NCBI RefSeq assembly: GCF_030384885.1
Contig: NZ_CP128613.1
DNA: 64,000 bases
Strand: one strand, 5' to 3'
From: Escherichia coli
Lineage (GTDB): Bacteria; Pseudomonadota; Gammaproteobacteria; Enterobacterales; Enterobacteriaceae
In this document: positions 44,400 to 44,566 of the stretch, one piece after another
How the letters are laid out: each line of letters starts with the position of its first letter
Numbering within the stretch: the first letter of the stretch is position 1
Position numbers and translations under genes: made by a program
Notes under the pieces: model-generated
Told to the model about the DNA's origin: nothing
Databases searched by the model: none
The model's input: only the letters and a program-made list of their open reading frames with translations

Positions 44400-44566
44400 C
44401 GCCGGTGACATACAATTAAAGCATCAACACCAACCGGAACCTCCACCACGTGCTCGAATGAGGTGTGTTGACGTCGGGGGAAACCCTCCTGTGTACCAGC
44501 GGGATAGAGAGAAAGACAAAGACCGGAAAACAAACTAAAGCGCCCTTGTGGCGCTTTAGTTTTGTT
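44400..44566 (+). ncRNA. ryjA: Candidate small RNA RyjA (convergent with soxR); boundaries approximate
   Basis: Recalled K-12 annotation of an sRNA between soxR and yjcD, plus a strong plus-strand terminator hairpin at 44532-44562; no promoter confidently identified. Confidence 0.3.
44532..44562. terminator. Bidirectional hairpin terminator overlapping the soxR stop codon
   Basis: aaactaaagcgcc-cttgt-ggcgctttagttt (13-bp perfect stem) with T-rich flanks on both strands. Confidence 0.7.

Follow-up and report, generated by a model that had tools for sequence, protein, structure and literature searches.

Identification of the small RNA RyjA/SraL at the 3' end of soxR in an Escherichia coli genome

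Does the stop codon of soxR lie inside the terminator of an oppositely directed gene and, if it does, what is that gene and does it act on soxR? The question arises from the window, a 64,000-nucleotide stretch of Escherichia coli DNA, in which an earlier note had pointed to a possible RyjA-like small RNA on the plus strand, convergent with soxR and ending at a hairpin. On the strength of sequence comparison, we take the feature to be RyjA/SraL itself, a 141-nt trans-acting small RNA of the Enterobacteriaceae, with a probability of about 0.93. RyjA/SraL and its terminator arrangement are already known, and nothing new is present at this locus. The RNA has had a literature since 2001 (Argaman 2001, Wassarman 2001, Silva 2013 and 2019, as cited in PMC3753932 and PMC6582626); with an Rfam family, an entry in the curated K-12 annotation and two targets already published, it is of little value as a discovery here. 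What the locus does illustrate is that such an RNA was recognisable to a first-stage reader from raw sequence.

A scan of the window with Rfam gave a match to RF01408 (sraL) on the plus strand at 44423-44563, covering model positions 1-142 of 142 with 153.3 bits (E = 1e-34), where the gathering score is 39 bits. The curated record of K-12 MG1655 carries the ncRNA gene ryjA (b4459) at the homologous position, 4277926..4278066, convergent with soxR at 4277469..4277933 and overlapping it by 8 nt. When aligned, MG1655 ryjA falls exactly on the Rfam match, with 141 of 141 positions identical and both ends equal, and the same 8-nt overlap with soxR is found in the window. This identity and the full-length Rfam match support what had been proposed for the plus strand. 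Between 44340 and 44600 the window differs from K-12 by five substitutions, none of them in the RNA: two lie upstream of it and three in soxR. The gene neighbours are those of K-12: ghxP, ryjA, soxR, soxS and pdeC. Of 5426 complete E. coli genomes, 5420 have a match to the 401 bases around the feature; identity reaches 95% or more in nearly all of them and 100% in one. The SoxR protein encoded in the window ends in ...LLEDEQN*. The features of the locus are collected in Table 1.

Table 1. Features in and around ryjA, with coordinates in the window
Feature	Position	Strand	Basis
Putative weak -35-like element, CTGGCG, 17 bp upstream of the -10 box	44388..44393	+	Inferred from spacing only
-10 box TACAAT, then A/T-rich discriminator TAAA (44417-44420)	44411..44416	+	Conservation; distance to 5' end
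RyjA/SraL small RNA, 141 nt	44423..44563	+	Rfam RF01408 and identity to MG1655 ryjA
5' domain, closed by helix P1 (44424-44430 with 44465-44471)	44424..44471	+	Rfam consensus structure
Block CCGGAACCTCC in the P1 loop, candidate seed or protein-binding site	44434..44444	+	Conservation; function inferred
Predicted tig-pairing region, CAC-GUGCUCG, SraL nt 25-34	44447..44456	+	Accessibility-corrected local interaction search
Central domain: helix 44473-44475/44515-44517, GGG-GAAA-CCC hairpin 44477-44486, hairpin 44487-44492/44499-44504	44473..44517	+	Rfam structure
A/G-rich single strand UAGAGAGAAAGACAAAGACCGGAAAAC with ARN-type triplets, candidate Hfq-binding and/or target-pairing region	44505..44531	+	Conservation
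soxR-strand U-tract (GUUUU, extending the stem UUU), predicted 3' end of soxR mRNA	44527..44531	-	Sequence
Intrinsic terminator hairpin common to both genes, probably bidirectional	44532..44562	both	13-bp stem, 5-nt loop, U-rich tails
soxR CDS, 154 aa, stop TAA 44556-44558	44556..45020	-	ORF list; annotation of identical E. coli records

Read directly from the letters, the hairpin consists of AAACTAAAGCGCC (44532-44544), the loop CTTGT (44545-44549) and GGCGCTTTAGTTT (44550-44562), and all 13 of its pairs are perfect. The ORF list places the soxR TAA, as the reverse complement of 44556-44558, within the 3' arm, which confirms both the perfect stem and the embedded stop codon that had been described. 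T-rich tails had also been claimed for the two strands and are there: the stem ends in UUU on each, followed by UGUU on the plus strand and by GUUUUCC on the minus strand. The 31-nt hairpin folds with -18.4 kcal/mol as plus-strand RNA and -19.0 kcal/mol as minus-strand RNA. Perfect stems of at least 13 bp with loops of 3-8 nt occur twice in the 64-kb window, here and in a palindrome at 40782-40839, and not once in 30 dinucleotide-preserving shuffles of it; even stems of 12 bp or more averaged 0.03 per shuffle. The hairpin is not a chance feature. Its stem, moreover, is kept in essentially all orthologues among the matches listed.

On the plus strand, a consensus scanner called a terminator at this hairpin. 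On the minus strand, with the full 13-bp stem counted, the tail is one T short of the scanner's rule (5 T in 8). Since a U-tract also follows the hairpin in the soxR direction, soxR very probably terminates here as well, which would make the hairpin a bidirectional terminator for two convergent genes. The sequence at the soxR-strand U-tract, CCGGAAA as read on the plus strand, is conserved at 90% or more. A bidirectional soxR/ryjA terminator was not found described in our literature search. The other perfect stem of the window, at 40782-40839, is by far its longest perfect palindrome, with 27 bp and a 4-nt loop in 58 nt (CCCGAGGTAATCTGAAAAAGGTGCAAT CTTT ...). The stop codon of a 549-aa YjcE-like ORF (40860..42509, minus strand) is about 20 nt upstream of it. 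The palindrome may be a bidirectional terminator for convergent genes, though its length is unusual. Elsewhere in the window, two naRNA4/CssrE elements, which are REP-derived, and one SECIS_2 selenocysteine insertion element scored above the Rfam gathering score; these matches are at 3748-3824 (+), 37099-37170 (-) and 24072-24126 (+).

How far does this arrangement extend beyond E. coli? A collection of species-representative genomes was scanned with an exact core 17-mer of the RNA, GTCGGGGGAAACCCTCC (44473-44489), which gave at least 120 loci. Invariance of the core is imposed by this search pattern, and a genus absent among the matches listed, such as Salmonella, is no sign of a true absence. 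BLAST comparison of the remaining RNA sequence marked 101 of the 120 loci listed as true orthologues; the other 19, from unrelated phyla, were set aside as chance matches. The orthologues span at least about 25 genera of Enterobacteriaceae, including Escherichia, Citrobacter, Enterobacter, Klebsiella, Raoultella, Kosakonia, Buttiauxella, Cedecea, Mangrovibacter, Shimwellia and Franconibacter, and even the ten most divergent of those listed are full-length Rfam sraL matches of 76-136 bits. A convergent soxR lies close by at 98 of the 101 orthologous loci among the matches listed; SraL, its terminator and convergent soxR travel together through these genera. The position of the soxR stop is more variable. 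At the 97 measurable loci among the matches listed it is inside the hairpin in 11 (Escherichia, Citrobacter amalonaticus and a few others), within the 3' arm in 10 of these; at the others it is past the hairpin, at a distance of 0-5 nt (34 loci), 6-20 nt (23), 21-60 nt (17) or over 60 nt (12).

A few of the loci carry odd taxon labels. A 2.9-kb sequence labelled 'MAG: Bacillota bacterium' is an enterobacterial sraL-soxR locus with an SraL 100% identical to that of E. coli, and those labelled 'Chryseobacterium sp. 18061' and, twice, 'Proteobacteria bacterium' (both MAGs) are typical enterobacterial sraL-soxR loci. These labels probably reflect contamination or mis-binning in public assemblies.

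The earlier note had left the promoter unplaced. Its -10 box can now be put 6 nt before A44423, the annotated 5' end. In a MAFFT alignment of the 101 orthologous loci among the matches listed, the six positions of TACAAT agree with the window at T 0.8, A at least 0.98, C 0.5, A at least 0.98, A 0.4 and T at least 0.98, so that the key positions A44412, A44414 and T44416 match in at least 98% of species; identity is 0.7-0.9 over the discriminator and 0.3-0.9 over the -35-like element. An alternative base-frequency table, anchored by a regular expression, was dropped because it mixed registers between loci and was circular at the anchored positions. A sigma-70 consensus scan reported no plus-strand promoter at ryjA, a miss explained by the poor match of the -35 to consensus. 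The combination of conserved -10, A/T-rich discriminator and weak -35 fits the sraL promoter as published, which has a degenerate -35 and in Salmonella is sigma-S dependent by northern blot, lacZ fusion and RpoS ChIP (PMC3753932). In E. coli, RyjA is listed as RpoS-regulated and induced in stationary phase (10.1101/2024.06.20.599902), and its transcript, detected by northern blot, starts with A in work in which the ryjA promoter was engineered (PMC12956327).

The intergenic DNA between ghxP and ryjA (44070-44310) contains five GCAAACGTT-like boxes, some arranged as inverted pairs; examples are AAAAAAGCAAACGTTTA at 44121, AAAAAAGCAAACGATTA at 44164 and AAACGTTATC at 44075 and 44271. The sole sigma-70-like promoter found, which is on the minus strand (44206..44177, TTGAAA-18-GATAAT) and faces ghxP, shares part of its -10 with the box at 44164-44180. 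The boxes, with their resemblance to PurR-type operators, are candidate operators for the purine transporter gene.

The sequence variation among the orthologues is that of a folded RNA. The Rfam structure was projected on 66 representatives with pairwise identity of at most 95.5%. Standard pairs filled 94.4% of cells, compared with 39-53% when the 3' partners were slid by 1-3 columns; ten pairs changed on both sides, and the covariation score was reached by none of 500 shuffles. Covariation thus supports the RyjA fold. Among these representatives helix P1 has compensatory double changes in four of its seven pairs (95.8% of cells paired), the second central hairpin in three of six (97.2%) and the terminator stem in two of 13 (95%). 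The first two central helices, around the GAAA loop, are invariant, which is partly forced by the search pattern. Pairing is weak, at 72%, in the small hairpin that covers the tig seed.

Conservation is strongest in two blocks that the search pattern did not include: CCGGAACCTCC in the P1 loop is exact in 88 of 102 sequences among the matches listed, and GAAAGACAAAGACCGG, within the A/G-rich strand, in 83 of 102. For the latter strand the Rfam description and the literature suggest a role with Hfq, and an ARN-rich single strand together with a U-tailed terminator is what is expected of Hfq binders. SraL is associated with Hfq and/or ProQ (PMC7237705), its stability depends on Hfq (PMC3753932), and full-length RyjA accumulates in E. 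coli lacking poly(A) polymerase I (PMC5389530).

The proven targets of SraL are made elsewhere. In Salmonella, SraL lowers the mRNA of trigger factor (tig), as demonstrated by compensatory chromosomal mutations and gel shifts, through an interaction of 7+3 bp (PMC3753932), and it pairs with the rho leader, protecting rho mRNA from premature Rho-dependent termination (PMC6582626, PMC12360218). When the RNA was searched against the K-12 tig leader, the top-ranked local interaction joined SraL nt 25-34 to tig positions -29..-19 (CGAGCAC-U-GUG) in a predicted duplex of 7 bp, a 1-nt bulge and 3 bp, with a total energy of -11.0 kcal/mol and a hybrid energy of -16.4. It ends a few bases upstream of the GAGG Shine-Dalgarno sequence and reproduces the published geometry. 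Considered purely as complementarity, the predicted tig site is intact in this E. coli copy. A single 7-mer is not rare by chance, since 55% of shuffled sRNAs have at least one 7-mer match to the tig leader, and the tig 7-mer GUGCUCG is present in only 23 of 102 species among the matches listed. A further 7-mer, SraL CGGAACC (44435-44441) with tig GGUUCCG at -74..-68, lies in the near-invariant CCGGAACCUCC and is within chance expectation, at 0.84 such runs per shuffled sRNA.

For rho, the local interaction search of the E. coli leader gave no candidate site above chance. One candidate, SraL 93-106 with rho -151..-139 at -8.0 kcal/mol, lies within 44505-44531. The best predicted site, SraL 32-47 with rho -244..-230, was not adopted, as it overlaps an apparent rho promoter (by eye TTGACT, 17 nt, TATTAA) and is probably untranscribed. 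Unrestricted RNAduplex predictions against the tig and rho leaders were no better than those for shuffles (84 and 272 of 300 as good, respectively) and were discarded; perfect-seed counting and the accessibility-corrected local search replaced them. By analogy with Salmonella, the E. coli copy would be expected to regulate the same targets, tig and rho. That the tig seed is far less conserved than the two other blocks hints that the ancestral target site is elsewhere, and CCGGAACCTCC and GAAAGACAAAGACCGG, rather than the tig seed, are probably the ancestral pairing or protein-binding sites of SraL.

Could the same DNA be read without a small RNA? The hairpin might be the terminator of soxR alone, with the 110 nt upstream of it ordinary intergenic DNA and no gene on the plus strand. 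PGAP-annotated E. coli genomes, which have soxR alone under the match, and the empty plus strand of the simple sigma-70 scan both lean that way, yet the full-length covariance-model match and the curated ncRNA annotation contradict it, as do the compensatory changes in helices upstream of the terminator and the conserved -10 box. Northern blots, moreover, detect the RNA in both E. coli and Salmonella (PMC3753932, PMC12956327, PMC5389530), and we give this reading almost no weight. Equally negligible in our estimate is the idea that the transcript is a small mRNA for the 26-aa peptide MRCVDVGGNPPVYQRDREKDKDRKTN, from ATG 44458 to TAA 44536-44538. This ATG-initiated ORF does lie wholly within RyjA, but no Shine-Dalgarno sequence precedes its ATG, an ATG-initiated ORF of 15 aa or more is missing from 77 of 102 orthologues among the matches listed, and where such internal ORFs are found their length varies from 16 to 37 aa. 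Conservation tracks the RNA helices with their compensatory changes, not codons, and the ORF was rejected on these grounds as a conserved coding sequence.

It is also conceivable that RyjA exists mainly for its neighbour, as a cis-antisense regulator of soxR working through the terminator common to both transcripts. RyjA would pair with the 3' end of soxR mRNA, or the two transcription units would collide, and the stability or termination of soxR mRNA would be altered; sigma-S activity would then be coupled to the superoxide sensor. The geometry would allow some contact. Complementarity is perfect over about 41 nt if soxR ends at the minus-strand U-tract, cofolding RyjA with soxR gains 29.5 kcal/mol over folding them apart, and a kissing contact could start from the terminator loops, CUUGU and ACAAG, which complement each other. 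The shared neighbourhood described above also favours it, as does the soxR stop being inside the hairpin or within 20 nt of it at 68 of the 97 loci among the matches listed, from which it follows that soxR transcripts generally must cross the SraL terminator. However, the overlap is confined to that terminator, which is self-folded in each RNA (-18 to -19 kcal/mol) and would present a high kinetic barrier. Among the matches listed, the stop-in-hairpin layout is limited to the 11 loci of Escherichia, C. amalonaticus and few others, and 12 of 97 species have their stop over 60 nt from the hairpin. The best-conserved blocks (44434-44444 and 44505-44531) are outside or just at the edge of the overlap, and a purely cis function needs neither; the proven targets, tig and rho, are reached in trans, and our literature search found no publication with an effect of RyjA on soxR. 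We therefore regard cis control as the main role of RyjA as highly unlikely. A cis effect of any kind on soxR mRNA is poorly supported. A version in which sharing the terminator does more than save space, and in which strong sigma-S-driven sraL transcription into the hairpin in stationary phase, or loop kissing followed by the ~41-nt pairing, alters termination, 3'-end processing or stability of soxR mRNA, seems to us very unlikely; were it true, the general stress response would be linked to the level of the superoxide sensor, specifically in Escherichia, where the stop is inside the hairpin.

We thus return to RyjA/SraL as a trans-acting RNA and propose the following model. Transcription of ryjA would begin at the promoter with its -10 at 44411-44416, weak -35 and A/T-rich discriminator, which, to judge from a literature mostly on Salmonella, sigma-S RNA polymerase would use in stationary phase and under stress. 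It would head towards soxR and stop at the intrinsic terminator that holds the last soxR codons and the TAA, and the same hairpin, on the opposite strand, most probably terminates soxR. The predicted fold of the RNA begins with a 5' domain that a 7-bp helix closes, followed by a central domain with two hairpins, the first of them capped by GAAA, then by the conserved A/G-rich single strand and, last, by the terminator. Helped by Hfq and/or ProQ, it would act on mRNAs from other loci by limited pairing: immediately 5' of the tig ribosome-binding site, lowering trigger factor synthesis, and with the rho leader, where Rho would be kept from terminating its own mRNA early.

In the records compared, the ncRNA at this position is carried only by the curated MG1655 record. 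PGAP annotation of E. coli RefSeq genomes (e.g. NZ_CP027579.1) has soxR only, despite sequence identical to K-12 at the ryjA position. In a broader context, routine PGAP annotation of E. coli genomes omits the ryjA gene.

The arrangement at the soxR end has its closest general parallel in the bidirectional intrinsic terminators of convergent genes, with which it has in common a single hairpin that has a GC core and is flanked by A-rich sequence 5' and T-rich sequence 3', the hairpin plus U-tract on both strands, and a site between, and partly inside, the convergent units. It differs in that one partner is a small RNA, with soxR termination at the site predicted, and in that the hairpin takes in the final two and a half sense codons of soxR together with its stop. 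As an RNA, the feature belongs beside the other sigma-S-dependent Hfq sRNAs of enterobacteria, such as SdsR and GadY. These resemble SraL in their RpoS-driven stationary-phase transcription, in a U-tailed intrinsic terminator and in short imperfect pairing with mRNA leaders, and GadY resembles it further in overlapping the 3' end of a neighbouring gene's mRNA. GadY acts in cis on the overlapping gadX-gadW mRNA, whereas the targets documented for SraL, tig and rho, are all reached in trans and its overlap with soxR is restricted to the terminator. The nearest likeness of all is to RyjA/SraL as already described (RF01408, K-12 b4459): no difference was detected within the RNA, and the sequence, both ends, structure, convergent soxR position, terminator, -10 box and tig complementarity all agree with it.
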